Origin: an uncultured bacterium
GTDB lineage: Bacteria > Patescibacteriota > Minisyncoccia > Phycocordibacterales > GWA1-40-21
Direction of reading: 5' to 3'
DNA length: 64,000 nucleotides
Assembly (NCBI GenBank): GCA_963804975.1
Contig: CAWDSG010000002.1
Span: 494,224-558,223 of the forward strand
How positions within the stretch are numbered: the stretch's first letter is position 1; every line of letters starts with the position of its first letter. Of this stretch, positions 27,201 through 64,000 are shown piece after piece. The notes below the pieces were generated by a model, which did not search any database, had not been told where the DNA came from, and saw only the letters and a program-made list of their open reading frames with translations. Position numbers and translations under genes: made by a program.

Positions 27201-30200
27201 GTCGCTATCACATTTCCATTCATATCAACCGCAAGGAATGAATTTGAAAGATTTGAAATGTTCAGATTTTGAGTCGTTATTGTTCCCACCACATACAAAA
27301 CTGTGGCAGGCGTAGTCGTCCCAATCCCCACCTTTCCCCCATCTTTTACCGCAAATACTGTGGTTGTATTATCAACCAAATCCAATAAATCTCCTGTTCC
27401 TTTTCCTGTCACATTTAACACTGCTCCTGTTGCAGTAGCGAATCCCTGCGTTATGGAGAGAACATTTGCAGAATGAGCAATAGTTCCTCCTGTTTGTGTC
27501 ATCGTATCATTTATATCAACTACCGAACCTGTAACTGTAAGAGTTTGGCCAGCATTGTTATAATCGTAGCTTCTTGAAAAACTTGCTATATTTCCTGCCA
27601 TTGCATATGAGTTTGCTGTAAGATTTGTCGCTCCCGAAACATTTAATAATTTTCCCGATAATGCTGTCTGGCGAGAAGTCGCTCCTGTTTGAGATATAGA
27701 TAAACCAGTGCCAGAAGTCATTGCCGAACTAGGAGTAACAGTCATAATTGTTCCTGTATAATTTGTGGAAGGGCTAGATTGCACGGAAAGAGCCGTGAGA
27801 GTGTTTGATGTAGCTCCAACAACACTAAGTTGTTCAGTTGGGTTTGTTTGATTTATTCCTACGTAACCTGATGGAGCTATATACAAAGCTGAAGTTCCGC
27901 TTGAAGAAGCGAAATTTGCAATGGCGGGAGTGAAACTTGTGCCGTCTACCATTGTGGTCGTGCCGACAACAGACAAAGAAGCGCTTGGCGTGGAGCTTCC
28001 AATTCCCACCGTTCCGTTGCCAGAAACAACCATAAGAGCATTGGCAGAGGACAAAACATTTCCATTAACCTCTTTGGCTGAAATTACCAAAGTCGGATAT
28101 GTGGTGGAAGCAGATACTGGTTGTATATTGAGAGCTATTTGGTTCGCTTGGCTGTTCGCGGTTGAAACTGCATAAGCTAATCCTGAAAATGTAAGCAAAT
28201 CAGATGATTGGATTCTGTTTCCCGCTGTAGCCGCAGTTGTGTTTGTAATTAAGACAGCATTGCCAGAAGTTGTCGTTCCAATACCATTCATTGTATCGGT
28301 AATGGTGTTTGAAAAACCTCCTGTTGTCGCTCCCGTAAGAGCGCCTGTCATCGTCAAAGTTCCTCCCTGACTAAGCGTTAATCTGGTGGCATAAGCAGAA
28401 TTATTGGAGGAAGAATTAAACATAAGTTGAGGATTTGCAACTGTCGCTTGTTGAGGCACGCTTGTTATTTGCCATTCAGCTGGCTGTGAAGTGGACGCTG
28501 TCGTTCCCCAACCGTAGGATTTGAACCATATTGAAGGGCTGTATTGCTGGCTTCCTGAAGCTGCAGCTGTGTTGTTTATCAAAGACAAACCTGATGTGGT
28601 GGCAGCGGTTGCTCCAATATTTTCAGTATCCAATTCAAGCAATGACGCGGGAGAAGTCGTCCCAATCCCCACATTCCTCGTCGCATAATCATAATAAATC
28701 CCAGAATCGGTCAAAGCACCGCTTGATGTGGCGTATTGAATATATCCAGTTGTGAAAGGAGAGGTGGAAGCCAAGAAAGACAGGGTGTTTGAAAGATATG
28801 GGAGAGAGGTGGAAGCTGAAAGAGGAAGGAAAGTTGAAGTCACCCAGCTCGTGGAAGCAAAAGTGCTTGAAGCGTATGCGAATGTCGGATAGTTGGATGT
28901 CAGATATGAAGTTGATGCAAAAGTTCCAAGGACCCAGGAAGTGGAAGCGAAAGTTGATGAAGCGTAAGTAAACGTCGGGAAGTTTGTTGTTACAAAACTG
29001 GTAGAAGCGTAAGTGGAAGAAGCCATGGCAGAAGAGATAAACTGGGAGGTGGAGTTGTCGGCGGTGGAAAGATCCTGGCCGGAGATGTTTGAAATGTAGT
29101 TATTCGTATTTGACCATGCAAGCGGAGAGCCGACGGTTCCAATACCCGATAGAGTCCCTCCTGAGGTTACGACGCCTGTGAGATAACTCATCCCTGTCCA
29201 TGGAGTGCCTGTGACAAACTGGGATGTGGTGGTAGAGATGACATTACCTGAAGTATCAACCGCAATAAAACTGTTTGTAAGATTTGAAATGTTTAGTCCT
29301 TGTGTTGTGGAAGTACCAATGACCGAAAGCGCTGCGTTTGGAGTGGTAGTACCGATGCCCACAGTTCCGCTAAATGTTGATGTGGCAAACGTTGATGTCC
29401 CCAAGACCGTAAAATTGTGAGTTCCTAAATCCACATCCGCGGTCGCTCCTGAATATGGGACAAAATTTGTTGCATCAACCGTGTTTGAAGGAAGAGCAAT
29501 ATGCGAATCGGCTTCGTCTCCGTAATAAAGATCTACTGTCGGAGAAAATGGACCTGGTCCAGAAATTGTTGCATAAACCTTTGTCACTATTCTCGAAGAA
29601 GTTGAGGCCATAATATATGTGCTTGATGTTGCGAAGTACAAGCGATATTCAACTTCTGAAGTCCCAATGGCTGGTGTTACTTCTGATGTGCCGATTCTGG
29701 CTATATTCGCTCCGCTTGAATTGGCTTCCCAAATCTCTGCGTACAACGTGACAGTCTTGCCGTTTGCTACAGGTCTTGCAGCATGAATATGGAATTCATA
29801 TTGTCCTGCGGGAATAAAAGTAAGATTTGGAAAACCCGGATCTGTAATCCAGTTTTGCACAACATCGGTTCCAACCGGAAGAGTGGTGGTTGATAAAGTT
29901 GTTTTTGGAGTATAAGGAGTTGGAAGTTGTTTTTTGTATCCAGTTACATTTGATGCTGTATTTTGAAAATAATAGGTTAGGGTGCCTTGTGCCGGCAAAG
30001 TTTGCCAACTTGGCGCTGCGGAATTCACTCCATCTCCTGTCTGAGCGAGAAACTTTTGGACAGTTGTTGTGTTGCCGGAAAGAACTGTTGCCGCTCCTGA
30101 ATCTCCGCCATAAATGATATCTCCAAGAGTGGTCATTGGCTGATACGAAGAAGAAGCATATTCAAATGTCGGGAAGTTTGTTGTTACAAAACTTGTCGAT

Positions 30201-33200
30201 GCAAATGTGGATGATGCGTATGAGAATGTCGGATAGTTTCCTGTGAGGTATGAGGTGGAAGCGTAAGTGGAGGAGGCATAAGCGAAGGTTGGATAGTTGG
30301 ATGTCAGATATGAAGTCGAGGCGAATGTACCGAGGACCCAGGATGTTGATGCGAATGTGGAAGAGGCATATGCAAAGCTCGGATATGTTGAAGTCAGTGT
30401 CGTGGTGGAAACATAATCTGCTCCGAGAGCGGTGATTGTTTCAAAAGTGTTTGTCACCCATGAAGTGGAAGCGAAGGTTCCAAGGACCCATGTGGTCGAA
30501 GCGTATGTCGATGAAGCGGTGGCGGAAGAGAGAAACTGCGAAGTGGAATTGTCCGCGGTGGAAAGATCCTGGCCGGAGATGTTTGAAATGTAGTTATTCG
30601 TATTTGACCATGCAAGCGGAGAGCCGACGGTTCCAATGCCTGAGAGAGTCCCTCCCGAAGTTACGACGCCTGTGAGATAACTCATCCCTGTCCATGGAGT
30701 GCCTGTGACAAACTCTGATGTGGTGGTGGAAGTGATGTTTCCGTTTTGATCAACTGCAAGGAATGAGCTTGTAAGATTGTTGCCCAAAGTGACTTGAGAG
30801 ATAGTGGTTGAGGCCATGATGTTGGTGCCGTTTGCCGTGAAGCTTTGAGTCCCAAGATTGACTGCTCCTGTCGCACCGGTGTAAGGGACATAGGTTGCGG
30901 TGACAAAGGAAGTTGATGCGAAGGTGGAAGAGGCGTACGCAAATGTCGGGAAGTTTGTTGTTACAAAACTTGTGGAAGCGAATGTACCGAGGACCCAGGA
31001 TGTTGATGCGAATGTCGAAAGAACCCATGAAGTGGAAGCAAAAGTTCCAACTATCCACGAGGTGGAAGCAAAAGTAGAGGAAGCGTATGCGAATGTCGGG
31101 AAGTTATTCACAACAAATGAAGTTGAGGCGAAGGTGGAGGAAGCGTAGCTGAATGAAACATACGTCGATGTTGCATTCGCAATCTTCAAATAAGTGGATG
31201 AAGCTGTGGTAGTGGAAAGCAAAGCGTTCAAAGCGGTTTCCAAATCTCCTTGATCTGAAAGTGGTCCTGTAATAGCGCCCCATGCCACGGTAGCGCTGCC
31301 GCTTGAAGCAAATGCCCATTCAAAACCGGTTGATGAAGTTGAAGAAGCCTTTAAAAATGTTCCGGGTGTTCCCGTCTCAAGTGAAGCGATTGTCGTTGAT
31401 GAAGTCCAATACGCAAGAGTGTTTGTAGCGCCTCCGCTCAAACTCGCTCCGCTTGTAGGAGTTGTCGTTGAAATAATGTTTCCGTTTGCATCAACTGCAA
31501 GAAAAGAATTGCTTAGACCATTATCAAGCGAAAGAGATGTGATTGAAGTAGTGGCAAGAGTGGAAGTGCCGGAAACGGTGAAAGAGTTTGCTCCGAGATT
31601 CACATTTGCATTTGCTCCGGTGTAAGGAACGTATGTGGCTGTGACGAATGATGTCGAAGCGAAAGTGGAAGAAGCGTATGAGAATGTCGGAAAGTTATTC
31701 ACTACGAATGAAGTGGAAGCAAAGGTTGATGAAGCGTATGAGAATGTCGGATAATTGGATGTGAGAGTTGTAGTAGAAACATAATCAGACGAGAGAATGG
31801 AGGTGAAAGTGGAAGTGGAAATGTAATCTGTTCCAAGCGAAAGGATAGTGGCAAAAGTGTTTGTCACCCAGCTCGTGGAAGCGAAAGTTCCGATGACCCA
31901 TGAGGTGGAGGCGTAAGTGCTTGATGCGTATGAAAAATTTGGAAAATTATTTACAACGAAGCTTGTCGACGCGAATGTCGATGAAGCGTATGCGAATGTT
32001 GGAAATGTGGAAGTGATCCAGGAAGTGGAGGCAAAAGTAGAGGAAGCATAAGCAAAACTTGGAAATGTCGAATTAATCCAGGAAGTGGAGGCGAATGTTC
32101 CGAGAACCCACGATGTCGACGCGAATGTGCTTGAAGCATAAGCAAATGTCGGAAAATTATTTGTTACAAAACTTGTGGAGGCAAATGTGGAAGAGGCGTA
32201 TGCATAGTTTGGATAGTTTGCGGTGACCCACGAAGTGGAAGCGAATGTTGAGTAAACCCACGATGTCGAAGCGAACGTGCTTGAGGCGTAATCAAATGTC
32301 GGGAAATTATTCACTACGAATGATGTGGAAGCGTAAGTGGAAGAAGCGTATGAGAAGCTTGGATATGTTGATGTCAGGGTTGTCGTGGAAACATAATCTG
32401 CGGCAGCGGATGTCGTGGAAAGTTTTTCATTCAGAGCGGTTTGCAAATCACCTTGGCTTGAAAGTGTTCCGGTAATAAAACCCCAGACCCCACTTCCACC
32501 GCTCGACGAAGCCAGTGCCCAATCAAAACCTGTCGGTGATGTAGACGATGACCTTAAAAATGTTCCCGCAGTTCCTGTTGCAAGACCTGTGATTTCCGAA
32601 GTGCCGCTGAATATCGCAAGCTGATTAACTAACCCCGTTCCTGTAACCGGATTTGTTAAAGCTTTTTGAAATGTATCATTTACCCACGATGTCGAAGCGA
32701 ATGTGCTTGAAGCATAAGCAAATGTCGGGAAATTATTCACTACGAATGATGTGGAAGCGTAAGTGGAAGAAGCGTATGAGAAGCTTGGATATGTTGATGT
32801 CAGGGTTGTCGTGGAAACATAATCTGCGGCAGCGGATGTCGTGGAAAGTTTTTCATTGAATATATTCCAATCAGCACTTGATAAGGCGCCCGTTCCTGTG
32901 CTTGAAGCTAAACCGAGCGAAAGAGTTTGTCCTGCTAAATAAAGACCGTTCCCGGTGCCTATTGCCACATCGCCGCTGTTTGTACCAGTTGAAGTTCCGG
33001 AAATATTTGAAGCTGAAATTGCGCCCGTAAATGATGCGTTTATTCCGCTCAAAAGTCCGCTTGAGGCAACAGAAAATAAATTCGCTCCGGAAGAATTTTG
33101 AATTTGAAAAAGATTTGCGACTTGTCCTACAAATCCACCAATTGTGAGCGCCGTGGAATTCGTAGATGTGGAAAGAATACTGACAACCGAATTTGCAATC

Positions 33201-33703
33201 GGCGTCGTGGTGCCGAATGAAGATTGCCCTGTTCCGGAAACTGCACTTGAAAGCTGTGAGAATGCCGAAGCGGTTATGAGCTCGCGCGGAGAAAGAGTTT
33301 CAAAATATATATTGTCGGACGAAACTTCAATTTGAAGATAAACTGTATTGTTTGTGTTGAAATTATAATTCAGCGCATCCGGATATCCATTTGCGGTATC
33401 TCCGATATTCACATTGAAAACTCCCTGTCTGACCGTTGTTGAAGCAGAATTTGGAGAGAGTGCCGGCCAAAGTTTATTGCCAGTCGTAGTGCTTACATTA
33501 TCCCAGAGAGAAAATTTAAAATAATAGATCGTCCCGCTGCCGCCCAAAAGATTTCCGCTTGAATCATACAATCTGCCTTGGAAGCCCAGGATTGCCGGCG
33601 TACCGGATGCCGCGTAAGAAAAATTAAATGCTAAGGAGAATAACGATACTATTATTAATAGCTTCGCCAGGACTTTTTTACTTAAAAAATGTTTTATATA
33701 CAT
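18245..33703 (-). CDS. giant (5152 aa) repetitive surface protein with tail-fibre-like repeats, a pectate-lyase-like beta-helix, a poly-Gly module, a peptidase-S74-like chaperone segment and two C-terminal Big_2 domains
   Basis: Single ORF with a signal peptide. Carries many …NVGIGTTTP…L.V.G and YASSTFASTSW/F repeats, the TDDTAVLQSAIDT…beta-helix, GGGGGGGGGAPGGGGG…VIIIRY, SDRRLKTDITETHYGLADLMK and two TLTAINISPATANLTVGD… Big_2 repeats. Confidence 0.8.
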   Translation of the reverse strand: MYIKHFLSKKVLAKLLIIVSLFSLAFNFSYAASGTPAILGFQGRLYDSSGNLLGGSGTIYYFKFSLWDNVSTTTGNKLWPALSPNSASTTVRQGVFNVNIGDTANGYPDALNYNFNTNNTVYLQIEVSSDNIYFETLSPRELITASAFSQLSSAVSGTGQSSFGTTTPIANSVVSILSTSTNSTALTIGGFVGQVANLFQIQNSSGANLFSVASSGLLSGINASFTGAISASNISGTSTGTNSGDVAIGTGNGLYLAGQTLSLGLASSTGTGALSSADWNIFNEKLSTTSAAADYVSTTTLTSTYPSFSYASSTYASTSFVVNNFPTFAYASSTFASTSWVNDTFQKALTNPVTGTGLVNQLAIFSGTSEITGLATGTAGTFLRSSSTSPTGFDWALASSSGGSGVWGFITGTLSSQGDLQTALNEKLSTTSAAADYVSTTTLTSTYPSFSYASSTYASTSFVVNNFPTFDYASSTFASTSWVYSTFASTSWVTANYPNYAYASSTFASTSFVTNNFPTFAYASSTFASTSWVLGTFASTSWINSTFPSFAYASSTFASTSWITSTFPTFAYASSTFASTSFVVNNFPNFSYASSTYASTSWVIGTFASTSWVTNTFATILSLGTDYISTSTFTSILSSDYVSTTTLTSNYPTFSYASSTFASTSFVVNNFPTFSYASSTFASTSFVTATYVPYTGANANVNLGANSFTVSGTSTLATTSITSLSLDNGLSNSFLAVDANGNIISTTTPTSGASLSGGATNTLAYWTSSTTIASLETGTPGTFLKASSTSSTGFEWAFASSGSATVAWGAITGPLSDQGDLETALNALLSTTTASSTYLKIANATSTYVSFSYASSTFASTSFVVNNFPTFAYASSTFASTSWIVGTFASTSWVLSTFASTSWVLGTFASTSFVTTNFPTFAYASSTFASTSFVTATYVPYTGATGAVNLGTQSFTANGTNIMASTTISQVTLGNNLTSSFLAVDQNGNITSTTTSEFVTGTPWTGMSYLTGVVTSGGTLSGIGTVGSPLAWSNTNNYISNISGQDLSTADNSTSQFLSSATASSTYASTTWVLGTFASTSWVTNTFETITALGADYVSTTTLTSTYPSFAYASSTFASTSWVLGTFASTSYLTSNYPTFAYASSTYASTSYLTGNYPTFSYASSTFASTSFVTTNFPTFEYASSSYQPMTTLGDIIYGGDSGAATVLSGNTTTVQKFLAQTGDGVNSAAPSWQTLPAQGTLTYYFQNTASNVTGYKKQLPTPYTPKTTLSTTTLPVGTDVVQNWITDPGFPNLTFIPAGQYEFHIHAARPVANGKTVTLYAEIWEANSSGANIARIGTSEVTPAIGTSEVEYRLYFATSSTYIMASTSSRIVTKVYATISGPGPFSPTVDLYYGDEADSHIALPSNTVDATNFVPYSGATADVDLGTHNFTVLGTSTFATSTFSGTVGIGTTTPNAALSVIGTSTTQGLNISNLTNSFIAVDTSGNVISTTTSQFVTGTPWTGMSYLTGVVTSGGTLSGIGTVGSPLAWSNTNNYISNISGQDLSTADNSTSQFISSAMASSTYASTSFVTTNFPTFTYASSTFASTSWVLGTFASTSYLTSNYPTFAYASSTFASTSWVTSTFLPLSASTSLPYLSNTLSFLASTSPFTTGYIQYATSSGALTDSGIYYDYATRNVGIGTTSPASLLELDTENIGATAATTSGLSLINNTAAASGSQQYSPSIWFKSYGWGTTASTSQPAEWQITSVPQQATVANPQLMFNSSSNNSAYATRLTLSQGGTLTMTGALTGATTGGFSNTITDTMNGIGTTTSGNAVLITNTTAATAGNRIQSSDLLTFSGLAYAVSTANSQANQIALNIQPVSASTTYPTLVISAKEVNGNVLSSANALMVVSGNGTVGIGSSTPSASLSVVGTTTMVDGTSFTPAIANFASSSGTSALYIAPSGYVGINQTNPTEQLSVVGATSNTLTALSVQSSPSTNYTGTIMTVTPSSAMTSGTGLSISQTGATSRQTALSGKLLNVSGATNLTANSYAMAGNIASFSRSYDYNNAGQTLTVTGSVVDINDTMTQTGGTIAHSANVLSITQGFATATGAVLNVTGKGTGDLLDLVDNTTTVFAVKDGGKVGIGTTTPATVLYVVGTITTQNLNISNLSNSFLAVDMNGNVIATSTADLFTNYVNYNYASSTFASTSFVVNNFPTFAYASSTFASTSWIVGTFASTSWVTSTFETIASLGADYVSTTTLTANYPTFAYASSTFASTSFVTATYVPYSYASSTFASTSWIVGTFASTSWVTNTFATIANYPTYTYASSTFASTSFVTTNFPTFAYASSTFASTSFVTATYVPYTGATGAVNLGTQSFTANGTNIMASTTISQVTLGNNLTSSFLAVDQNGNITSTTTSEFVTGTPWTGMSYLTGVVTSGGTLSGIGTVGSPLAWSNTNNYISNISGQDLSTADNSTSQFLSSATASSTYASTTWVLGTFASTSWITSTFPSFAYASSTFASTSFVVNNFPSYAYASSTFASTSWVTNTFETITALGADYVSTTTLTSTYPSFAYASSTFASTSWVLGTFASTSYLTSNYPTFTYASSTFASTSWVLGTFASTSFVTTNFPTFAYASSTFASTSFVTATYVPYTGATGAVNLGTQSFTANGTNIMASTTISQVTLGNNLTSSFLAVDQNGNITSTTTSEFVTGTPWTGMSYLTGVVTSGGTLSGIGTVGSPLAWSNTNNYISNISGQDLSTADNSTSQFLSSATASSTYASTTWVLGTFASTSWITSTFPSFAYASSTFASTSFVVNNFPSYAYASSTFASTSFVTATYVPYTGATTNVNLGANTFTVSGTSTLATTSITQLTLGNGLASTFLAVDPNGKIISTTTPTGSSQWTTNASSIYYSGNVGIGTTSPLAKFEVYGTAGNNAIANFASSTNSSVLYIAASGFVGIGTTTPATALYVIGTSTIQNLNISNLSNAFLAVDSSGNVITTTTPSGSSASSSLSANVIYASTLSGIHSDSNLTSGGGTDDTAVLQSAIDTLASEGGGELILDKVFLVGSLHVPSDITIRGLGWNTGLYRADHTDAPIIRNENPSTTTAQDTNIQLINFQVSLNGINQDATPIESEGDCWVNGVAFYGVSDVTLDTIRVYNADQPNIELPIMFTNTSYVTVENTEVYMGLSTNNDGIHFTGPNSHLVLKNIKGAVGAQLIDLNSTDAVNGLQDCSATPWIINSGDITDVLIDGIEFMGSEYGISVLSGANNIKHLTIKNVHGTTVYWTIGFWNAWDAPTYTGGIIDDVLLENISMTYGQPIQAYHIGSGLVHIGNLQISNSRWAYNGANVPWFNIESGVTIDSLQMDNITVNNSGQPLIKNDAEIKTLSMNGIKWYRPAGSSPSGYMIGGNGTTDLVSMVDLDLLYLSGAINPTQTVGTSTSYIANDLNVLGNVISSDDISAQNLNALTINSTTSNSTEANISDTLITGTANITQAITFGTTTAGLGGTVTVDGAYTIRTFTSSGTFTTPASTTDYSVLIVAGGGGGGGGGAPGGGGGAGGAVASSSITLATSTAYTVTVGDGGEPAVNGDDSSFDDLTASGGGHGCTYEGTTGDGGSGGGGGYSCPTGGAGTAGQGYDGGDGAGAVDPYETGGGGGAGDVGGTYTSYQSGNGGVGTSSGITGYTAYYGGGGGGTASTQGTVYGTGGAGGGGDGAIDGSSNGSDGTANTGGGGGGSHGGTGGSGGSGVIIIRYLTPANQQPTIYLTNINGLFNFTAGISIAGVLGINTSSPAAFLDVYGTSTLQKANLFTISSSSLARLFTVSNAGYVGIGASNPQNALSLTGGDNISIDMSTPAKPTIASSTTGGTLSARVYYIKISASDGVGVTTPSTEVTATTTGTTGSITLSGYSVTGASSYRIYFATSTGAGNENVYISTTTTTFVLSTSTPAVYTAGTVPTVTTAYVDKISASGNSWLLGGNVGIGSSTPVSLLELGKTISGTTTLSAGALFDEQAYTFTDASTSIGKTGTGMTWNYFGQQTIAATNASTTQTNLFGVYIAGAPTTSGGGIKNVGTSTALFVNGGTVSASTTIAYSLVVIAPTGAASNYAAYFNGNVGIGTSTSNSILSVASTSASLISPAFQVQTGSTGAPTNGLVYFNFNGARTAGGAAFQITDISTTIATTTQITSNSLTTGNALTINATGLTTGSGEAIFTTGTSQTGPALLVQTGSTGAPTNGLVYFNFNSARNTGTSNTGFQITDLSTNGTTTQITSNSMSTGTAMTINATALTSGSGLSIITTNTTQTGPSLKVQTGGTSAPTNGLVYFNFNGARTAGGAAFQITDISTTIATTTQITSNSLTTGNALTINATGLTTGSGEAIFTTGTSQTGPALLVQTGSTGAPTNGLVYFNFNSARNTGTSNTGFQITDLSTNGTTTQITSNSMSTGTAMTINATALTSGSGLSIITTNTTQTGPSLKVQTGGTSAPTNGLVYFNFNGARTAGGAAFQITDISTTIATTTQITSNSLTTGNALTINATGLTTGSGEAIFTTGTSQTGPALLVQTGSTGAPTNGLVYFNFNAAHTNTGFQITDLATTGTTTQITANSSTGGTGLAIIMNSSSKAAGAALFILASSTAASSTTADAGIIIDRNSASGNGLRYIRFGSISGPEIGAIINSSNSAISYVTGSDRRLKTDITETHYGLADLMKVQVADFKWISDGSGDTGFIAQDLYNIYPNAVTAGDNGTDPYILGTTNTWSVDYGKLTPLILKGVQDLNNNFIASTTALEASSSADEANINEINNTLSRFLNASSSTLTIDSITAGVEIIAPSIKVNGLIVDSVSSLADAISFMNDTIFFGRPYFNTDTAGFAVIAKGQESVDVKFDNPYLEQPIVNATISLNKSDNPAADSAAVGDIFANDIRYVIANKSTIGFTIILNKPAIDNTTFSWTAFAIKNAKTFGYPSDYTLPAASSSPPSGGLSGSGSSGNSSSTLTTINITPVTASLTIGDATTTQQLSAETLDQNGDSIIATLTWASDNVLVATVDDSGLVTPVGAGTANITASSGLITSDSSVITVASVSAPMPTLTAINISPATANLTVGDATTTQQLSAETLDQNGDSIIATLTWASDNVLVATVDDSGLVTPVGAGTANITASSGLITSNPAAITVQDSATSTP
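18288..18790. repeat. two tandem 279-bp repeats, each encoding a C-terminal Big_2 Ig-like domain
   Basis: Near-identical DNA copies starting at 18294 and 18573. Confidence 0.7.
19970..21360. repeat. intragenic tandem repeat, 501-bp period, about 2.7 copies, 100% identical
   Basis: Identical sub-ORFs at 20118/20619/21120 and at 20364/20865. Encodes 167-aa units (…TNGLVYFNFN…) with an internal ~83-aa sub-period. Confidence 0.85.
25250..26760. repeat. intragenic tandem repeat, 867-bp period, about 1.75 identical copies
   Basis: Identical sub-ORFs at 25312/26179, 25384/26251 and 25600/26467. Confidence 0.85.
30290..30990. repeat. dispersed third copy of the 867-bp repeat unit, with an internal deletion
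   Basis: The sub-ORF 30682-30942 is identical to 25600-25860. Confidence 0.7.
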
Positions 33704-47970: not shown

Positions 47971-48846
47971 TTACAAAAATTTAAAGCTCTGCGCTATTTT
48001 TTCCAAAACTGAATCAATTTTTGATTTATCAAATTCTTTGACTCCCTGGTCAGGAGAATAATTATAAATATTTGAAGAATGGATGGTATATTCAATCGCA
48101 TAGCATTCATCGTCATGAATTGCTCTATAACTTGTCGTTTCATAAAAATTCCCTGCGCCTGCGTCTGAAAAATTCATTTTTATAAATTGCACGCCGTTTA
48201 TCGTTGTTGTCGAAACCTTTTCCATATTTCCATATTCCGAAATCAAACATTTTTTTATTGCGTCAGGATCAGCGCTTGTACCAACAGTAAACTTCGCTTC
48301 TCCGAAATTTGTTTTTTCTGCAAAAAATGTCCGCGGAATATTTACTATAACAAAAAGAATTCCTGAGCTCGTATTTTGCTCCCGCCAATTTTGCGAATAT
48401 CCGATATCTCCGCCAAAAAGTTTAAATTGATTCGGAAATATGAAAGAAAAAGTTTTTGACATATCGGTATAGTTTGTAGTGTCTGCATCAATTTGTTTTT
48501 CAATTCCGGCGACACAATTTGAATATGTCGTTGCATTTCCTTCGGTGATAAATGCATTGTCGCCTTTATTCCAAAAAACAATACCGCTTGCTTCATATCT
48601 CGCTCCATCGGCAGAAATCGTCTGTGGCAAAATCATTTTTCTTCCATCGGAAAGAGAAATAGAAACACTGCTCGTTCCGTAAGCCGCATTTATTGTTCCC
48701 TCTTCACAATAATAAATTGCAGAAATGATTGAATTTTCTTTTGCGGTATTGATTGAGGTTTTCTTGCCAAGATTCCCGTCGATAAGAATAGCGGCAATAA
48801 TGATAACAAGGTAAATAATGAGATAAATAAAGGTTTTTTTGGACAT
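47971..48846 (-). CDS. MliC-like (membrane-bound lysozyme inhibitor, C-type) domain protein with an additional C-terminal domain
   Basis: YYCEEGTINAAY…LSDGRKMILPQTISADGARYEASGIVFWNKGDNAFITEGN…SNC matches the MliC signature (YxC…SASGAxY…FWxKGD…C). Confidence 0.5.
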   Translation of the reverse strand: MSKKTFIYLIIYLVIIIAAILIDGNLGKKTSINTAKENSIISAIYYCEEGTINAAYGTSSVSISLSDGRKMILPQTISADGARYEASGIVFWNKGDNAFITEGNATTYSNCVAGIEKQIDADTTNYTDMSKTFSFIFPNQFKLFGGDIGYSQNWREQNTSSGILFVIVNIPRTFFAEKTNFGEAKFTVGTSADPDAIKKCLISEYGNMEKVSTTTINGVQFIKMNFSDAGAGNFYETTSYRAIHDDECYAIEYTIHSSNIYNYSPDQGVKEFDKSKIDSVLEKIAQSFKFL

Positions 48847-56616: not shown

Positions 56617-56670
56617 AAAACCCCGAGGTTAAACCTAGGGGAGCTCCCCTAGGTTTAACCTCGGGGTTTT
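56617..56670. repeat. nested GC-rich palindrome (compound copy) acting as a bidirectional terminator between rnj and the 804-aa gene
   Basis: AAAACCCCGAGGTTAAACCTAGGGG-AGC-TCCCCTAGGTTTAACCTCGGGGTTTT, a perfect 25-bp arm. A half-unit CCCGAGGG precedes it. Confidence 0.75.
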
Positions 56671-56672
56671 TG

Positions 56673-59087
56673 TTAAATCTTGAAATCAAGATTGAGAATT
56701 CCTTTGGCGACGTCAAGAACAGATGTCTTCAAAACCTCGGTATATGTTTCGTCGTCATTCTTCTTTTCCACCTTGATATAATATTTCCCATTCGGCAGAA
56801 GCGCGTAATAACCTCCGAATTTATCGGCTATTTTCTTTGCAAACGGAGCATCTTCGCCTTCCCTGAAAATATTCACTATGGCGAACGATAAAGGAATATT
56901 CGTGTTTTTTTCCGCAATCCTGCCTGATTTCTTGGTTTTAAAGACGACATAATTCAAAACATAAGCCACAACGTATAATCCGAATATTATGTAATTGTAA
57001 GGCACCGGCGCATAAATCAAAGCAATAAGGGAAACTATGGCGCCTATGGAAAATAGAATTTTGGATATCCTCGCCCAAGTCACATCGCTGCCTTTCATAA
57101 ATTTATTCACGTCCATCTTGGTCTTGGCAAATTCGTTCCAATTGAACGACAGAGGATCCATCGGAATATTCTTTGTTATCGTTTCGTTTTCGTTTATAAT
57201 CACGAGCTCTCCTCCGAAATACAAGTCATTGTAAACTTCATCAAATAATTTACCCATCATTTTCAGCGAAGGCGAAGTGTAATTTGTCTTTTTTGTTTCT
57301 ATCCTATATTTGCCCGGGAGCACCAGAAATCCGTATCTTCCGTCAATATCAGTTATAGCCGAGTCCACTTCCACATTCGTTTCAGTGTTTATAAGCGACA
57401 CTACCGCAGGATCAAGCGGTCTTTTTGTGATTGAATCGTACACGGTGCCCCAAGGGCGATTTTTCCTCTTCAGGCCGGACAATTCAAGAAAGAATCCGAG
57501 AAGGCGCAGAAAAGACAGCCAAAAATCGGAAATTGAAACCGATGCGGCAGCTACAGGCAGTGATAATCCGGTAGCGACACCCAAAGTGGAAATTGTTTTT
57601 GTAACAGCAGAACCTGTATCTGTGTTTACGAATTGCTTGGTGCCCTCAGCGATATCTTTTGCCACAGAAAAAGGATTGCTGATAATATCTTTCACTCCGT
57701 TTGTTAAGCCGTTGATTAAATCTCCAACCACTCCGCTAAAATTATTTACAATGGAGTTTAATTCATTGGTTAAAGCGGGAGGTATCAATGGGTTTTGATT
57801 ATTAGGATTTTTGGGATTATTAATCGGAGAAGAAACCACATTAACCGTTCTCGTCACGGTTGAAACATTTCCCGCCTCATCGGTGGCTGTATAAGTAATC
57901 TCGTATGTGCCTGGTTTGCTTGTGTCTACATTGTTTGAAATTACATAGGCAGGAACCGATCCGCTTACATTATCAAACGCTGTCGCTCCTTCATCAGTGT
58001 ATGTTGAACCGACAGTTATGGTTATCGGGGTGCCTCCTGTGACAGTAATTACCGGAGGAATATTATCTGTTGATGTGCTTTCTTCAACTACATAAACTTT
58101 TCTTGTGGCATTTGCAATATTTCCCGCCGTGTCGGTAGCTTCGTATTCAACAAAGTATGTCCCGAGAATATTTGTGTCAACATTGTTAAAAATTATAACA
58201 ACTGGAACTTTTCCATCCGTATTATCCATTGCTGTTGCGCCTTTATCCACATAATTTGAATTTAAAAAAACCGTTGTTGGAGTACCACCTGTTACTGTAA
58301 TAACGGGCGGAATATTGTCTATTATTGGAGCCGCAATGATTTCTACTGTTCTTGTTGCCACCGCCATATTTCCAGCATTGTCAGAAACTTTATAAACAAT
58401 TGAAAATGTTCCCGTCGCTGAAGTGTTGATCGGAAGGCCGGTAATATTTATCCTTGAAGTAACGTTTCCGTCTTCATTATCCGTTGCCGTTGCGCCGGCA
58501 TCAATATAAGTATCTCCAACTGTAAGTAAAATTGTGATATTGCCGTTTATTGTGATAACGGGAGGAGTAGTGTCAAGTATCAGAACTCCGCCGCCGCCGC
58601 CAGTCGGTGGGTGAGGAGGAGTGGTAGTTCCCGGCCTCCAATCAGTTTCAACGTCGCAATGAGTGCAATTAAAAGTCAGAATGCCGATTATTGTACCTGT
58701 AGCGGTTCCGGAAAATTTACCTGTAGTCGTATTGATTGATACTCCCGAAAAACCGATCCAGCCGATATTACTTCCCCATGCAGTGCCTGAAAGATGGCCG
58801 TGTCCGTCATTTATCACCCCGCCATTTAGCGGAGCAAAATTGATCCAGCCATAATTTTGCGACCAGGCAGAACCTGTTAAAGTAGAGTCAGTTACATATA
58901 CGCCTTCGTATGCTTCGTTATTTGAATTTATCGGAGCAAAATTTACCCAGCCGATATTATTGCTCCAAGCGGCGTTTGTGGTAGTTCCTATGGTGCCGGT
59001 TGCCGCATGAGAAATTGCCGGAAATAAAAAAATCAGTAAAATAATAAAACCGAAATGACAGAATTTATTTTGAAAAAAATCACGCAT
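56673..59087 (-). CDS. surface protein with three DUF5011-like Ig domains, an N-terminal GW(I/V)NF repeat region, a CarboxypepD_reg-like domain and C-terminal TM helices
   Basis: Signal peptide. Three copies of PPVITVTGG…YTDEGATAxDN…GTYxVxYxATDxAGN. A RYGFLVLPGKYRIE segment. Confidence 0.6.
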   Translation of the reverse strand: MRDFFQNKFCHFGFIILLIFLFPAISHAATGTIGTTTNAAWSNNIGWVNFAPINSNNEAYEGVYVTDSTLTGSAWSQNYGWINFAPLNGGVINDGHGHLSGTAWGSNIGWIGFSGVSINTTTGKFSGTATGTIIGILTFNCTHCDVETDWRPGTTTPPHPPTGGGGGVLILDTTPPVITINGNITILLTVGDTYIDAGATATDNEDGNVTSRINITGLPINTSATGTFSIVYKVSDNAGNMAVATRTVEIIAAPIIDNIPPVITVTGGTPTTVFLNSNYVDKGATAMDNTDGKVPVVIIFNNVDTNILGTYFVEYEATDTAGNIANATRKVYVVEESTSTDNIPPVITVTGGTPITITVGSTYTDEGATAFDNVSGSVPAYVISNNVDTSKPGTYEITYTATDEAGNVSTVTRTVNVVSSPINNPKNPNNQNPLIPPALTNELNSIVNNFSGVVGDLINGLTNGVKDIISNPFSVAKDIAEGTKQFVNTDTGSAVTKTISTLGVATGLSLPVAAASVSISDFWLSFLRLLGFFLELSGLKRKNRPWGTVYDSITKRPLDPAVVSLINTETNVEVDSAITDIDGRYGFLVLPGKYRIETKKTNYTSPSLKMMGKLFDEVYNDLYFGGELVIINENETITKNIPMDPLSFNWNEFAKTKMDVNKFMKGSDVTWARISKILFSIGAIVSLIALIYAPVPYNYIIFGLYVVAYVLNYVVFKTKKSGRIAEKNTNIPLSFAIVNIFREGEDAPFAKKIADKFGGYYALLPNGKYYIKVEKKNDDETYTEVLKTSVLDVAKGILNLDFKI

Positions 59088-59096
59088 ATTTATATA

Positions 59097-62000
59097 TTAT
59101 TGATCATTAACCGAAATGGAGTAATTTGTTGTCTGCTCTCCGTAAGCTACGGTGAGTGTTTCGCTTGCGGTTGTGGTTGATGAATCGAATCCTGTTATGT
59201 CCTCAGGCGTGATAGGTTTGATTGAAGTTGAACCATCGGAATAAGTTCCGGTAACGACAAGGCCTGCGATATCAAGGGTGTCGCCAATGATGTAAACAAG
59301 TTTGTCTGCCGGAGTTGTGATTGCAATACTCAATAAAGTCGGTGGCGATGGAATCGGATTATTATCGGAATCGCCGGATGATATTACTGTAACGGTTGTT
59401 GAAGCGGAAAGATTTCCGACAGTCGCGGTAATGATTACAGTTCCAGTTGAAGATGCGGTAAAGATTCCTGCCAGCGGATCAATCGTGCCAACCGAATCAT
59501 CCGAAATTGCCCATGCGGTTGTTGTTGAAAGTGTTATTCCGTTTTGATCGGTTATATAAAATGAGGTGGAAGAACCAATAGAAACATTTGTATTATAAGG
59601 AATTATATTTATTGAGGTAGTTGTTGAATTTGAATTTGAAGCTGGTATATTTGCATTTCCTGAAGAATTTCCTCCTGAGTTCAGGACTGAAGCAGTGCTG
59701 TCAGCATTTGTTGAAGAATTTTGTATTTCGCAAGCCCCAAGTTTATTAACCAAGATGCCATTATCAATAATTACGCAATATTCCTGTCCTGTAGATTTAT
59801 CATACATCGTAATCCCTTCCGGTTTCCCGCTTGTGCCAATTGCAATGCCCGTAAGATGAGCCAGTCCGTTTTCAACTTTTATTATGAACGAGCCGATTTC
59901 TTTTATGGCATTGACGAGAGCAGCGATGATCGTCCTGTCTGTAATGGCCAGATATCCTCTTGTGTCAGTGGCTACAGCTTCAGGAATGGCAAGCTGCATG
60001 TTTTGGGCTGAAAATCCTGAGTAGACATTTGCCGTATCATATCCCGTTCCCGGTTTCCATGTATAGTTGATGGAATTAATTTTCATTACATCGGATAAGC
60101 TTCTTTCATACGGACCTTGAATGTTTTTCAGTATTTCATCTGATTCTCCGCCTGGAATTATATTTCCCTGAATATCTACTGTGATTTCAGCCATTGTACT
60201 GCTTGAAAGGCTCATGATCTGAATGGTGCCTGTGGCAACTGTCAGTGTAGCTTCCGGAGTTGAGGTGCCAATACCGACATTGCCTGCACTTGTGATAGTA
60301 AACAATCTTTCATTGCTTGATGAAGAAACTGCGAAAAGATCTGTGGTTGGTGAAGAGCTTGTGCCGTAGATATCAAGAACGGCAGAAGGAGTTGAAGTTC
60401 CAATTCCTAAAGTTGTAGTTATAATGCCAGATCCAAAATTTAAATTGCCGTCTGGTGTTAAAGTGATTTCCGCTTGTTGAACAGCCGGAGTAAGATATCG
60501 AATTATAACAATACCACTGCCTCCGGATCCAGGCGTACCAGTATGCGAACCGCCGCCTCCTCCTCCAAGGTTTGAAGTTCCGTTTTCTCCGCTGACAGGT
60601 CCTGCCGTTAAAGCTCCATCTCCTCCGCCGCCAAGCCCGCCAGTCCCTCCTGCGGCTCCTTGATCGGTTGCAGTTCCTCCTCCGCCTCCAGCATAATAAA
60701 CTTCGGCACCAGTAATTGAAGACGTAGTTCCGATTCCACCGTTTCCTGATTGATCTGTTGTATAGTCATCGCCCGGACCCCCTGCTCCGCCTCCGCCTCC
60801 AGTTTCATAAGTTCCAGCAAGACCGTGTCCGTCTCCTCCGTCATAACCTTGGCCTTCAGTTCCTGTTCCCCCGCTTGCGCAAGAAATACCTCCTCCACCT
60901 CCGGATCCTCCATCACCACTTGAAGAAGTACAACCATGGCCTCCGCCAATAGCTGTAAAACCATTTAAAGAAGAATCTTGGCCGTTTGTTCCCGCTGCAC
61001 CGCCATTACCCACGGTAACACTATAACTTCCCGCTAAAGACATACTTGAAGAAGATATAACTCCGCCTCCGCCTCCGCCTCCGCCCGGAGCACCTCCTCC
61101 CCCTCCGCCTCCGCCTCCAGCAACAATCAAAATGCTATAATCGGAAACCAGCGGAGAAGCTGTAAAAGTTCCGGATGATGTAAATGTGTGAACAGTGTAA
61201 GCGCCATCAGTTGTAATAGTTCCGCCAGTCCCAAGAGGATTATTACCAATCACTAATGAATCATCAACATTGACTGTTCCGCCCGTTAATGTACTTGCTG
61301 TTATATCAGGAATACTTAAACTGCTTACGCTCGTTGTTCCTATGATAATTCCGCCTTGTATAGTTAGAGCATTTTCCGCATTAATACTGGCTGTGATACC
61401 TGCCATCGGTGTTGTTGTTCCCACCGAATATCCTAAAGCATCTATACCCTGAGGCGCTAATAATGTTCCGGATTTTGCTAACAGGTAAGTTAACCACGTT
61501 GAACTGGAATAACCAGTTAGCCGGATTCCTCCGTTAGTGAAATCGTATATATATGTCTCCAGAGTGCTTGCATCGGTTGTCAGGCCACTGGAAGGAGATC
61601 CTACTCCATTTCCAAAATTATATCCGTAACTACTACCATATAAACTCAGTGCCCCTTTTTGTAAATTAACTTTTTCACCAAAAGTATTTTCTTTGGCTTT
61701 ATCGTTGGCCTTTGAGACAGCCATACTTAAAATTTTATTCAAACTATTTTGATCGGTAAGTTTGATGACATTAGCGACATTTGGATCAATAGTATCTGTT
61801 TTAACTGGCACTTCTGTTCCCCAATCTATTAAATCAGTAGATTCTTTGTAAAATGCATTATTGTGGGTCTTGTCCAAATCTGCGTAGTAAATTCTCCATG
61901 TAACTGGTGTTGTCGGCAATTGAACAAAAGAATAACCTTCGTAAAGTCCATTCCAATGCGGCGCAACCGGATTAAGTGTGGTGTAAGGGCCGGTAAGATT

Positions 62001-64000
62001 GGAGGAGGTTGCTTCCCGGTCCGGTCCGCTTTCCAAATAAAATAAATAGTATGTTGAATCTTTTTTAACAATCACAGGTTCGTCGATTGAAGCTGCTCCG
62101 TTAAAATCTCCAGTCAATGCTACGGGAGCGCTCCACGAAGTGAGATCCGAATTTTGTGCTTGTGTAATCCACAGAGAAAGATTGTCCCCAGAGGTTGTCG
62201 CGCTGGCAAAAGTAATATAAACATTATCACCCTCAACATACCAAGCTGCATTGACAGAATAACCATATCCGGGATTAGTGGTGGAAGCAACAAAAGTCCA
62301 GTTGGTCAAATCATCTGATGAAATAATCGAAAATGTAGGACTCCAAGAACCGTCTATGTAGCAAATCCAATATTTTCCGTGATAGTAAAGCGGAACAGGA
62401 TTCCAAATAAAATCTGTATAAACGGGAGAAGTATCTAATAAATTAAAGCTTAAACCGTCATTTGATACCAGAAGATTCATAACCTGAGTTTGTCCCGGCG
62501 TCGTAACCATTAAATAAATAGGTTGGTTTAATGTTGAGTCCGTACCGGAAGAAGTTGTTGCTACAACATTTCCGCCTGAATCAACAGCAAGATATGCATT
62601 TGAAAGATTTGAAATATTTAAAGCTGATGTGGTTGTAGTGCCTATAAAGTTGCCGTTTACAAAATAACTGTTTTTATTTTGAACTAAATCATTAATACTA
62701 GATTGCATAATTGATCCAACCAGTGCATAGCCGGTATCAGTTAAATGAACTCCGTCTCCTGAGAAATAAGTTGTGCTGGCGTAAGCGCCGTCCGCGCCTA
62801 AGTCATTGTTTGCAGCCAAATCAGCCAAACCGTCAGCAAACTCCGGCCAATCCGCTCTGATCAGATTATTATATAAATTCTTTTGGTCATCCAATCCGAC
62901 GCGGGAAATCATTGTTGCAACCAGCACTTTGAAGCCCAGTGCTTTTTCATGCTGTCCAAATGCTTTTAGATAAGAAAATGTAGTTGAAGCGGTAGAACCG
63001 GAGAAAAGATCGTTGGTTCCGCCCCATATAACAGCAATATTCATTCCTGAGTTAATACTATAGAGAGGATTGAGATTGCTGTAGGCCTGCTGATACATTG
63101 TCTGTAATGTTCTGCCGGAAACTCCGATATTAGAAGAAGTAAAACTTTGGCCATTCCAAGTTGGCAATGTAATATAATAATCGTAAGGATACGTGCCGTT
63201 AACGCCAACTGTTAAAGAATCTCCCACATAAACAATATTCGGGCTGCTACTGCTATCATTACCGATATAAAAATCTCCAGAACGGCTAATGCCGTTTACG
63301 TCTAATGTATAAAGAGGTGTTGTCGTGCCGATACCAATATTGCCATTAGTATCAATTACGAAACGAGGAAGCACTGCGGCTTGATCAAAAATATAATATT
63401 TATCGGCTAGATTATATGCCGACTCAGATGCGTTACCAACACCGGTAAGATAAGTTCGGCCGGTGCCGACATATTTCATTTGAGTATAACCATCTGCACT
63501 AAGATTTTGGAGAGCAAGTAAAGGAGTAGAGGCAGTAGTGCCGTATAAATCCAATGGGCTCTCAGGAGTTGTTGTACCGATACCAACGTTACCGCTAGTA
63601 TCAATAGTGAAACGAGGAAGTCCGGCGTTTTGATCAAAAATGTAGTATTTGTCAGCTAAACTGTATGCCGACTCAGATGCGTTACCAACACCGGTAAGAT
63701 AATTCCTGCCGGTACCGGTATATTGCATTTGAGTATAACCGGTAGCACTAAGATTCTGGAGAGTAAACAAGGGAGCATTGTCCACAGTGCCGGATAAATA
63801 CAATAAATTTTCAGGTGTAGTCGTCCCAATCCCCACATTTCCTGTAAAGTCGGCATTTCCTGCGACCGTCAATAAATTGGAGGGAGTTGTTGTGCCTATT
63901 CCCATATTTCCATCCGCAGTAAAGACGGTGTTGAGATTTCCGGAAGAATTATAAATATCAAGAACATCTGCAGTTGCTCCCCCGTCAGGAACAAGGGCCA
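59097..64000 (-). CDS. large surface protein, 5'-partial (at least 1602 aa), paralogous in architecture to the 5152-aa protein. Has an SGNH/GDSL esterase domain plus a beta-propeller glycoside-hydrolase-like domain.
   Basis: The reading frame stays open to the window edge. GIGTTTP repeats, GDSLT/GGTND/DGVHLT SGNH blocks, a beta-propeller-like region (DEPVIVKKDSTYYLFY), the GGGGGGGGGAPGGGGGGGG…IVIIRY module, the ESDEILKNIQ…MKINSINYTWK S74-like chaperone segment and a C-terminal Big_2 domain. Confidence 0.75.
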   Translation of the reverse strand, partial: ALVPDGGATADVLDIYNSSGNLNTVFTADGNMGIGTTTPSNLLTVAGNADFTGNVGIGTTTPENLLYLSGTVDNAPLFTLQNLSATGYTQMQYTGTGRNYLTGVGNASESAYSLADKYYIFDQNAGLPRFTIDTSGNVGIGTTTPESPLDLYGTTASTPLLALQNLSADGYTQMKYVGTGRTYLTGVGNASESAYNLADKYYIFDQAAVLPRFVIDTNGNIGIGTTTPLYTLDVNGISRSGDFYIGNDSSSSPNIVYVGDSLTVGVNGTYPYDYYITLPTWNGQSFTSSNIGVSGRTLQTMYQQAYSNLNPLYSINSGMNIAVIWGGTNDLFSGSTASTTFSYLKAFGQHEKALGFKVLVATMISRVGLDDQKNLYNNLIRADWPEFADGLADLAANNDLGADGAYASTTYFSGDGVHLTDTGYALVGSIMQSSINDLVQNKNSYFVNGNFIGTTTTSALNISNLSNAYLAVDSGGNVVATTSSGTDSTLNQPIYLMVTTPGQTQVMNLLVSNDGLSFNLLDTSPVYTDFIWNPVPLYYHGKYWICYIDGSWSPTFSIISSDDLTNWTFVASTTNPGYGYSVNAAWYVEGDNVYITFASATTSGDNLSLWITQAQNSDLTSWSAPVALTGDFNGAASIDEPVIVKKDSTYYLFYLESGPDREATSSNLTGPYTTLNPVAPHWNGLYEGYSFVQLPTTPVTWRIYYADLDKTHNNAFYKESTDLIDWGTEVPVKTDTIDPNVANVIKLTDQNSLNKILSMAVSKANDKAKENTFGEKVNLQKGALSLYGSSYGYNFGNGVGSPSSGLTTDASTLETYIYDFTNGGIRLTGYSSSTWLTYLLAKSGTLLAPQGIDALGYSVGTTTPMAGITASINAENALTIQGGIIIGTTSVSSLSIPDITASTLTGGTVNVDDSLVIGNNPLGTGGTITTDGAYTVHTFTSSGTFTASPLVSDYSILIVAGGGGGGGGGAPGGGGGGGGVISSSSMSLAGSYSVTVGNGGAAGTNGQDSSLNGFTAIGGGHGCTSSSGDGGSGGGGGISCASGGTGTEGQGYDGGDGHGLAGTYETGGGGGAGGPGDDYTTDQSGNGGIGTTSSITGAEVYYAGGGGGTATDQGAAGGTGGLGGGGDGALTAGPVSGENGTSNLGGGGGGSHTGTPGSGGSGIVIIRYLTPAVQQAEITLTPDGNLNFGSGIITTTLGIGTSTPSAVLDIYGTSSSPTTDLFAVSSSSNERLFTITSAGNVGIGTSTPEATLTVATGTIQIMSLSSSTMAEITVDIQGNIIPGGESDEILKNIQGPYERSLSDVMKINSINYTWKPGTGYDTANVYSGFSAQNMQLAIPEAVATDTRGYLAITDRTIIAALVNAIKEIGSFIIKVENGLAHLTGIAIGTSGKPEGITMYDKSTGQEYCVIIDNGILVNKLGACEIQNSSTNADSTASVLNSGGNSSGNANIPASNSNSTTTSINIIPYNTNVSIGSSTSFYITDQNGITLSTTTAWAISDDSVGTIDPLAGIFTASSTGTVIITATVGNLSASTTVTVISSGDSDNNPIPSPPTLLSIAITTPADKLVYIIGDTLDIAGLVVTGTYSDGSTSIKPITPEDITGFDSSTTTASETLTVAYGEQTTNYSISVNDQ

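Follow-up and report, generated by a model that had tools for sequence, protein, structure and literature searches.

A probable phage-derived surface fibre with an apparently intact SGNH esterase and a degenerate GH43-like propeller in a Patescibacteria genome

The closest characterised system to the fibre gene described here is the mosaic adhesive trimer (MAT) family of Bdellovibrio bacteriovorus, which has 21 paralogues, 13 of them ending in a Peptidase_S74 (S74) domain with the motif SDxxxK, the catalytic Ser-Lys motif of S74 (PMC10769870). MAT fibres have signal peptides, are displayed on the predator surface and carry chimeric tips, one member binding prey glycans, and self-cleavage of their S74 domain has been demonstrated experimentally (PMC10769870). 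In viruses, SGNH deacetylase domains are found on tail spikes and fibres, as described for Acinetobacter phage Aristophanes (PMC8471582), for the SGNH receptor-binding proteins of Klebsiella prophages (PMC13123978) and for the esterase petal of the Salmonella phage epsilon15 tailspike (bioRxiv 10.64898/2026.07.31.742079). In the Candidate Phyla Radiation (CPR), giant surface proteins of Vampirococcus have been proposed as attachment factors (PMC8080830), and little beyond type IV pili has been described of how the ultrasmall CPR or Patescibacteria recognize and hold their hosts. Here we describe a fibre gene on the minus strand at 59097-64000 of a 64,000-nucleotide (nt) stretch of DNA from an uncultured bacterium of the Patescibacteriota (contig CAWDSG010000002.1; hereafter the window). 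The encoded protein is probably a chromosomal, phage-derived, modular cell-surface fibre whose esterase works and whose propeller has lost its activity.

The reading frame of the fibre gene ends in a stop codon at 59097-59099 and stays open up to base 63998, which gives at least 1633 amino acids (aa) inside the window; an earlier note on this DNA was thus right that the frame is open at the window edge and that the N-terminus is missing. The N-terminus was recovered by protein search and not by contig extension: the full-length protein (P0026, 2688 aa, 100% identical over the query) came up when the propeller segment was run in an exhaustive HMMER search, and it is encoded on a single 606,401-bp NCBI/ENA contig. 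The window holds the C-terminal 1633 of the 2688 codons, and a residue n in window numbering, used below unless stated otherwise, is residue n+1055 of the full-length protein. A contig of the independent Logan assembly corresponds to window positions 56641-63444 with 0 mismatches, so the sequence did not arise as an artefact of a single assembly pipeline. The domain map was drawn from Pfam and PHROG scans together with reading of the sequence. The N-terminal 1055 codons beyond the window hold a signal peptide or anchor (MDTKITQKFFRKMCDFRLYTIASIFLFSLLIFAPGSIFA; full-length residues 13-42 are the sole strongly hydrophobic stretch), a GIGTSTP unit with a junction motif, and two LVIVD beta-propellers (Pfam LVIVD, 235 bits, 11 stretches). 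These are followed, toward the C-terminus, by GIGTTTP shaft repeats, an SGNH esterase, a junction motif, a GH43-like propeller, a linker, a Gly_rich_2 module, a distal shaft with two GIGTSTP units, Peptidase_S74, a Ser/Asn/Thr-rich linker, Big_2 and Big_3. All features of the gene given below lie on the minus strand.

Pfam, block conservation, AlphaFold2 and Foldseek all support an SGNH/GDSL esterase module at residues 252-440 (62679-63245). Pfam Lipase_GDSL_2 matches residues 258-426 with 47.9 bits against a gathering cut-off of 32.9. The four SGNH blocks are GDSLT with Ser261 (63216-63218), GVSGRT, GGTND with Asn329 (63012-63014) and DGVHLT with Asp415 (62754-62756) and His418 (62745-62747), the catalytic residues being assigned by alignment. 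All four blocks align to invariant or near-invariant columns of 18-24 homologues; an alignment of 19 sequences shows no variation at G20, S22 and H179 and conservation of at least 90% at D21, G88, N90, D91 and D176. The AlphaFold2 model is confident (pLDDT 94.8 and pTM 0.91, with pLDDT about 98 across the blocks), has the alpha/beta/alpha SGNH fold and shows TM-scores of 0.64-0.71 to SGNH esterases in Foldseek. The best matches in the PDB are polymer-acetate and acetyl-xylan esterases, platelet-activating factor acetylhydrolases and sialate O-acetylesterases, and esterase domains of phage tail fibres (SFP21A Gp09, 9lna; Shigella phage B2 Gp48, 9d84) are also matched; the nearest structures are of mixed families, so no single CAZy carbohydrate esterase (CE) family was assigned. 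PHROG matches are to families annotated as "lipase" and "tail fiber protein". Homologues of the module at 50-56% identity themselves resemble tail fibres: they carry DUF2793 at the head and S74 at the end together with the shaft repeat seen in the target, P0003 being one example. The catalytic set that the earlier note had called intact on the strength of GDSLT, GGTND and DGVHLT is therefore borne out by motifs, fold and model confidence, and the esterase is apparently a working one.

Downstream of the esterase lies a five-bladed GH43-like beta-propeller (residues 488-745, 61764-62537), which is supported by a family hidden Markov model (HMM), motifs, AlphaFold2 and Foldseek. The target segment alone scores 29.5-31.5 bits with Pfam Glyco_hydro_43, under the cut-off of 32.2 and over the first half of the profile only. 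A word-indexed homologue search returned nothing for the propeller alone and only esterase relatives for esterase plus propeller, and no relative came out of a scan of GTDB genomes for which the enzyme region was the query. The propeller family was seen only in the exhaustive HMMER search, which gave 193 representative relatives at E<=0.001. Among 83 full-length members of this family, 74 match Pfam GH43 at E<=0.001, the family profile matches GH43, GH159, GH32 and GH117 structures, and the target scores 182.9 bits against a family HMM built from 20 members with the target left out. The AlphaFold2 model (pLDDT 89.6) has a GH43 structure as its best solved match (3kst, TM-score 0.67) and also matches GH117, GH32 and GH159 structures, and a bifunctional GH43-carbohydrate-esterase structure (6mly) is also among the fold matches. 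Two phage proteins are closer to the model than 3kst (TM-scores 0.82 and 0.76). Homology of the propeller to Pfam GH43 is present at the family level.

The family signature, RDPS...WAPEWF...ID...EG...WR.Y...H, includes an Asp, a Pro, a Trp-Ala-Pro, a second Asp, a Glu and an Arg that are each conserved in at least 90% of members. Where the family has RDPS, the target has WNPV, with Arg replaced by Trp and the general-base Asp by Asn533 (62400-62402); this column is Asp in 73 of 81 family members. Where the family has WAPEWF, the target has VNAAWY, so that Trp-Ala-Pro-Glu is gone, and the conserved C-terminal His is gone as well. Asp639 (62082-62084), Glu687 (61938-61940) and Arg702 are retained. 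Of the three catalytic carboxylates that GH43 requires, the general-base Asp is absent and the other two are kept, and in the family HMM the substitutions sit at the most conserved columns. If the aligned ranges contain no gaps, the base Asp column corresponds to chain residue 15 of 2exh, the GH43 xylosidase XynB3. We take this residue to be the general base, Asp15, the other two members of the triad being Asp128 and Glu187. Within its family the target is an outlier as well, sharing no more than 39% identity with any of the other representatives. Judged from sequence, it is very unlikely that the propeller is an active inverting glycosidase, because the general-base Asp, WAPE and the conserved His are lost and the module stands apart from its family; retention as a glycan-binding module is more likely. 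Of the GH43/GH32-type propeller described in the earlier note, the fold and the family homology stand; glycosidase activity is not supported, nor is the idea of two active enzymes on this fibre. An assembly error as the source of the Asp-to-Asn change is unlikely, since the Logan assembly, which may derive from the same sample, is identical.

A related CPR chromosome (OY970290.1, LepA 82% identical) carries two tandem fibre genes, P0188 and P0185 (L083, 4737-15553), which together carry the target's types of module in another arrangement. P0188 combines LVIVD, Gly_rich_2 and S74 with a module that shares 61% identity with residues ~2990-3145 of a giant paralogue in the window. The modules of P0185 are a homologous signal region, another kind of GDSL-type esterase, a junction, a canonical propeller of the same family as that of the target (ARDPS, WAPS, IDA, FEAP), a second junction, Gly_rich_2 and S74. 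A single-target phmmer search missed the P0185 propeller, and the family HMM recovered it at E=1.8e-78. The pairing of esterase and propeller is common to the target and P0185, the propeller being intact in P0185 and degenerate in the target. The target looks like a fusion or reshuffle of the P0188/P0185 pair at the orthologous locus. The module types of the target recur in P0188 and P0185, differently arranged and alongside a giant-like module, which indicates exchange of cassettes among paralogues and between genomes.

The giant paralogue (5152 aa, 18245-33703, minus strand) has junction motifs, Gly_rich_2, S74 (SDRRLK) and C-terminal Big_2 domains, with other cargo. The junction motif, LNISNLSNAxLAVDxxGNV, occurs in three copies in the full-length target and in three copies in the giant, mostly directly after a GIGTTTP unit, and the Gly-rich module of the target is 64% identical over 197 aa to giant residues 3466-3662. 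The pectate-lyase-like beta-helix that had been supposed in the giant is weakly backed: it found no Pfam or PHROG match, and the only PDB match was a GH28 exo-polygalacturonosidase at E=0.03 over 46 residues in the N-terminal part; the module that P0188 shares with the giant covers this supposed beta-helix. The proposal that the two proteins are modular carriers on a common fibre is upheld by the shared junction motif, Gly-rich module, S74 and Ig-like domains and by the redistribution of modules over the tandem pair in OY970290.1, and it is better backed by this pair than by the two paralogues of the window alone. As a separate observation, the GC content of the giant gene is 0.45-0.51 compared with 0.37-0.42 elsewhere, with a strong positive GC skew, and the giant has long near-identical internal repeats, several of ~100-150 residues, occurring three times each. 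A beta-lactamase-like gene (16620-17633) abuts the giant fibre gene.

One alternative is that the protein is a bifunctional secreted depolymerase, in which esterase and propeller both act on an acetylated polysaccharide of a host envelope or of the environment, in the manner of bifunctional GH43-CE enzymes. The esterase does adjoin a GH43-like module, the same pairing occurs with a canonical propeller in P0185, the GH43-CE structure 6mly is among the fold matches, and of the GH43 carboxylates only the general base is missing, Asp639 and Glu687 being in place. Against these stand the change of the base Asp to Asn, the replacement of the neighbouring Arg, of WAPE and of the His at positions at least 90% conserved, the outlier position of the propeller and its Pfam GH43 score below the gathering cut-off. 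We regard this alternative as unlikely.

The scaffold that carries these modules has phage-like elements throughout. The GIGTTTP repeats of the earlier note are present, with GIGT at residues 33, 56, 139 and 222 and two full 83-residue units that are identical at 63 of 83 positions (76%); the repeats define a fibre shaft at residues 33-245 (63264-63902). Shaft residues 122-238 show a weak sequence match to the tip of the Bdellovibrio MAT fibre Bd3182 (PDB 8OJN, E=0.003, 117 residues). The copy of the junction motif at the esterase-propeller boundary (...GTTTTSALNISNLSNAYLAVDSGGNVVATT..., 62544-62651), identified by its recurrence, is 75-84% identical to the junctions flanking the P0185 propeller. 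Between the propeller and the Gly-rich module lies a linker or shaft (residues 746-939, 61182-61763) with no Pfam match, the C-terminal part of which is within a phrog_2295 match (residues 877-1175). The poly-Gly module that had been read from the sequence is Pfam Gly_rich_2 (residues 940-1168, 60495-61181, 71.4 bits); it overlaps phrog_2295 (E=5e-51), and a PDB sequence search gave no relative of known structure. The distal shaft with its two GIGTSTP units (residues 1176-1285, 60144-60473, recognized by sequence) would form the C-terminal end of the mature fibre once S74 has cut itself off.

Pfam adds to the modules of the earlier note an S74 self-cleaving chaperone domain and the C-terminal Big_2 and Big_3. 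The S74 intramolecular chaperone/autoprotease domain (59844-60143) scores 25.6 bits against a cut-off of 22, and its match begins at profile position 1, at Ser1286; its SDEILK motif has Ser1286 (60141-60143) and Lys1291 (60126-60128) at the catalytic positions. After the predicted cleavage site come an Ig-like Big_2 domain (residues 1460-1538, 59385-59621; 21.6 bits, below the cut-off of 22.8) and, at the C-terminus, an Ig-like Big_3 domain (residues 1564-1630, 59109-59309; 30.5 bits against a cut-off of 21.2) that matches PDB 4fd0 (E=1.4e-7). S74 is therefore not terminal in the target, ~250 residues following the S74 module with Big_2 and Big_3 among them. The phage-tail logic that the earlier note had seen in this protein gains from the S74 domain with SDxxxK, the PHROG tail-fibre matches and the phage tail-protein relatives of both enzyme modules.

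Searching with the 1633-residue segment gave 529 database proteins at E<=1e-10, typically of 900-2800 residues. Those with names are mostly "tail fiber domain-containing protein", several being labelled Patescibacteria, Kaiserbacteria or Taylorbacteria. In a module census of the best 119 of the 529 relatives, the shaft repeat occurs in 98 (the distal shaft, or "postGly" module, likewise in 98), S74 in 64, LVIVD in 12, the Gly-rich module in 9 and the target's SGNH family in 6, and the target's propeller family is found only in P0185. SDxxxK is kept in 60 of the 64 relatives with S74, and 31 of the 64 have at least 150 residues after S74, frequently Ig-like, which indicates that a non-terminal S74 is found in the superfamily too. 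From the Pfam lists, the cargo of the relatives includes SGNH, GH32N/GH43-like, GH5, Pectate_lyase_3, Beta_helix, LamG, F5/8-C, Kelch, FG-GAP, LVIVD, BNR, CBM48 and Ig-like domains, and this variety on a shared scaffold further backs the proposal of modular carriers. The exact module combination of the target was not seen elsewhere in the databases searched. One other protein, P0031 (1391 aa), is a fibre that likewise has a signal peptide and in which a canonical propeller of the target's family precedes a GIGTSSP shaft and S74, with a Bact_surface_Ig-like domain at the C-terminus. Its last residues are ...ATSTP and those of the giant paralogue ...SATSTP, which may be a shared C-terminal motif.

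Compared with MAT fibres such as Bd3182 (Caulton et al. 2024, PMC10769870), the target is likewise chromosomal, with a signal-peptide-like N-terminus, a long phage-like and probably beta-helical shaft, capping-loop-type motifs of the form G-x-G...P, an S74 domain with SDxxxK, a mosaic make-up and several paralogues per genome. MAT fibres, however, are of about 1000 aa with the tip alone diversified, whereas the target has 2688 aa with internal cargo; S74 is terminal in MAT fibres, whereas ~250 residues including two Ig-like domains follow the S74 module here; and MAT cargo has lectin, TNF and beta-sandwich adhesin folds, whereas the target carries SGNH, GH43-like, LVIVD and Gly-rich modules. 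The lineage differs too, the target belonging to Patescibacteria. MAT fibres belong to a bacterium that lives off other bacteria, and the target may do so as well, such a lifestyle being a prior from its phylum. In logic the two resemble each other strongly; membership is only partial, because S74 is non-terminal, the paralogues differ at their N-termini and MAT cargo is adhesive and not enzymatic. The supplements of PMC10769870 contain no entry "Parcubacteria" and two "Candidatus" entries, neither of them CPR, and among the papers searched none links MAT fibres with CPR.

The phage SGNH spikes and fibres (9lna, 9d84), which are trimeric and recognize polysaccharides of bacterial surfaces, share with the target an SGNH esterase on a fibre, the fold match, PHROG tail-fibre matches and S74, but they are viral, whereas the target is cell-encoded, carries a signal for secretion, exceeds them several-fold in length, bears extra cargo and has no virion genes nearby. 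GH43 enzymes (clan GH-F) and the bifunctional GH43-CE 6mly are like the target in their five-bladed propeller and adjoining esterase; however, GH43 enzymes are soluble and have a base Asp and WAPE, whereas the target has Asn, has lost WAPE and holds the module within a fibre. The Patescibacteria proteins annotated "tail fiber domain-containing protein" (an NCBI PGAP name) agree with the target in scaffold, size class and, among those named, phylum, and they are known as annotations only.

These comparisons suggest the following working of the fibre. The N-terminal signal peptide or anchor would direct Sec export and hold the N-terminus at or near the cell. The C-terminal S74 domain, as an intramolecular chaperone, would drive trimerisation of the shaft and then cut itself at Ser1286 (full-length Ser2341), freeing the chaperone together with Big_2 and Big_3. 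The mature fibre would then show its cargo between GIGTTTP and junction connectors: the two LVIVD propellers, the SGNH esterase, the GH43-derived propeller and the Gly-rich module. The esterase would most likely strip O-acetyl or similar acyl groups off the surface polysaccharide of another cell, and the adjacent propeller, which has lost the general base and part of the -1 subsite and kept its fold, would most likely act like a lectin and position the esterase; further binding may come from the two LVIVD propellers and perhaps from the Gly-rich module. In function such a fibre would correspond to phage tail fibres that modify their receptors and to the MAT fibres with which Bdellovibrio recognizes prey. 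We infer esterase activity and its substrate, surface display, trimerisation, self-cleavage and the binding role of the propeller from the features above, and host targeting in particular is less certain than the general reading of the protein as a fibre.

Several points weigh against this account. First, the target and the giant show no BLASTP match at E<=1e-5 between their N-terminal regions, so that the N-terminus of the target is unlike that of its own paralogue, whereas MAT fibres share a conserved beta-rich N-terminal domain of ~130 aa. Second, nearly 350 residues lie beyond the S74 cleavage site, whereas S74 is terminal in phage and MAT proteins; because of this, cleavage may be regulated or absent, or the polarity or anchoring of the fibre may be other than modelled. 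Third, no close orthologue was found against which selection on the propeller could be gauged, and Asn in place of the base Asp leaves some room for other chemistry. Finally, an episymbiont lifestyle is a reasonable prior for the phylum and enters here by inference only.

Another alternative is that the fibre serves adhesion or structure alone, in biofilms, in aggregates or in a coat resembling an S-layer, and that both enzyme-derived modules are used only for binding. The propeller is indeed degenerate, many members of the family carry only lectin-like or Ig-like cargo, the characterised MAT tips are adhesins and not enzymes, and giant CPR surface proteins have generally been proposed to act in attachment (PMC8080830). 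However, the esterase keeps all of its catalytic blocks at family-invariant positions, which would be unexpected if catalysis were dispensable, while the neighbouring propeller in the same protein shows relaxed constraint. A fibre that only adheres thus seems improbable to us, to about the same degree as a doubly active depolymerase, and we favour a surface fibre with an active esterase beside an inactive propeller.

The surroundings of the fibre gene were scanned as open reading frames (ORFs) of at least 150 aa plus the target, about 27 of which received a Pfam assignment and a few did not. Nine nt past the fibre stop lies a gene for an 804-aa protein (56673-59087, minus strand), in which Pfam and the sequence give three Bact_surface_Ig-like domains and a HYR domain, with a signal peptide ahead of them and a hydrophobic region at the C-terminus. 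Its orthologue, at 64-72% identity, lies directly downstream of the fibre pair in OY970290.1 (L083, 15568-17352), and this conserved neighbour is possibly a partner or anchor of the fibre. Elsewhere the window encodes TsaD, a class I aminoacyl-tRNA synthetase, LepA, ClpB, IF-2, GlmS, a cysteine-desulfurase-like protein, a class II ribonucleotide reductase, RNase J, an SBP_bac_5 protein, LemA, a NUDIX protein, an M48 peptidase and nine tRNAs. LepA is 88-90% identical to that of metagenome-assembled genomes which bear the labels Patescibacteria, Paceibacterota or "uncultured bacterium" and in some cases have contigs of 0.68-0.73 Mb. This places the organism among the CPR bacteria of Paceibacteria type. 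Among the ORFs scanned there are no capsid, portal, terminase, baseplate or integrase genes. The sole mobile-element gene among these ORFs is a transposase of IS110/IS116/IS902 type (Transposase_20, 7220-8332, minus strand), which lies among tRNA genes ~50 kb off. Other genes of the window include one for a 291-aa protein with an MliC domain, a membrane-bound inhibitor of C-type lysozyme (47971-48846, minus strand), and four consecutive ORFs of 388, 296, 509 and 476 aa between LepA and the beta-lactamase-like gene (11410-16418, minus strand), which have no significant Pfam family, the 476-aa ORF showing a weak Big_6 match only.

That the gene is a phage or prophage tail-fibre gene, or its remnant, serving a virus and not the cell would fit the phage relatives of all scaffold elements (S74, PHROG tail-fibre families and phrog_2295) and the phage tail proteins that match both enzyme modules, but it was rejected as very improbable on the window annotation, which among the ORFs scanned shows no virion or integrase gene and only the distant transposase as a mobile element, and is further opposed by the Sec-type N-terminal signal or anchor, by two paralogues 25 kb apart amid housekeeping genes, by a related-genome locus conserved beside FtsW, pilin, glycosyltransferases and SecDF, and by scaffold proteins of similar length that include chromosomal genes of other Patescibacteria genomes.

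For host recognition by Patescibacteria the locus offers a concrete candidate, a family of phage-style fibres that would process themselves and exchange their cargo, similar to MAT fibres except that they bear enzymes. An intact esterase beside a glycosidase that is degenerate here and canonical in the syntenic P0185 could show the conversion of a depolymerase into a binding module. Since the modules are separable for expression, the questions of esterase activity, glycan binding and S74 cleavage can be approached without culturing the organism. More speculatively, and with considerable doubt, Patescibacteria may have domesticated a phage tail-spike kit, consisting of S74, the GIGTTTP shaft and junction-bounded cassettes, into recombining "host-range" surface fibres, the present one pairing an active deacetylase with a glycosidase turned lectin; either the C-terminal fragment freed by S74 (chaperone plus Ig-like domains) or the conserved downstream Ig-like membrane protein would be a component of its own in an attachment apparatus. 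If this were true, the fibre repertoire would set which hosts an episymbiont can attach to.

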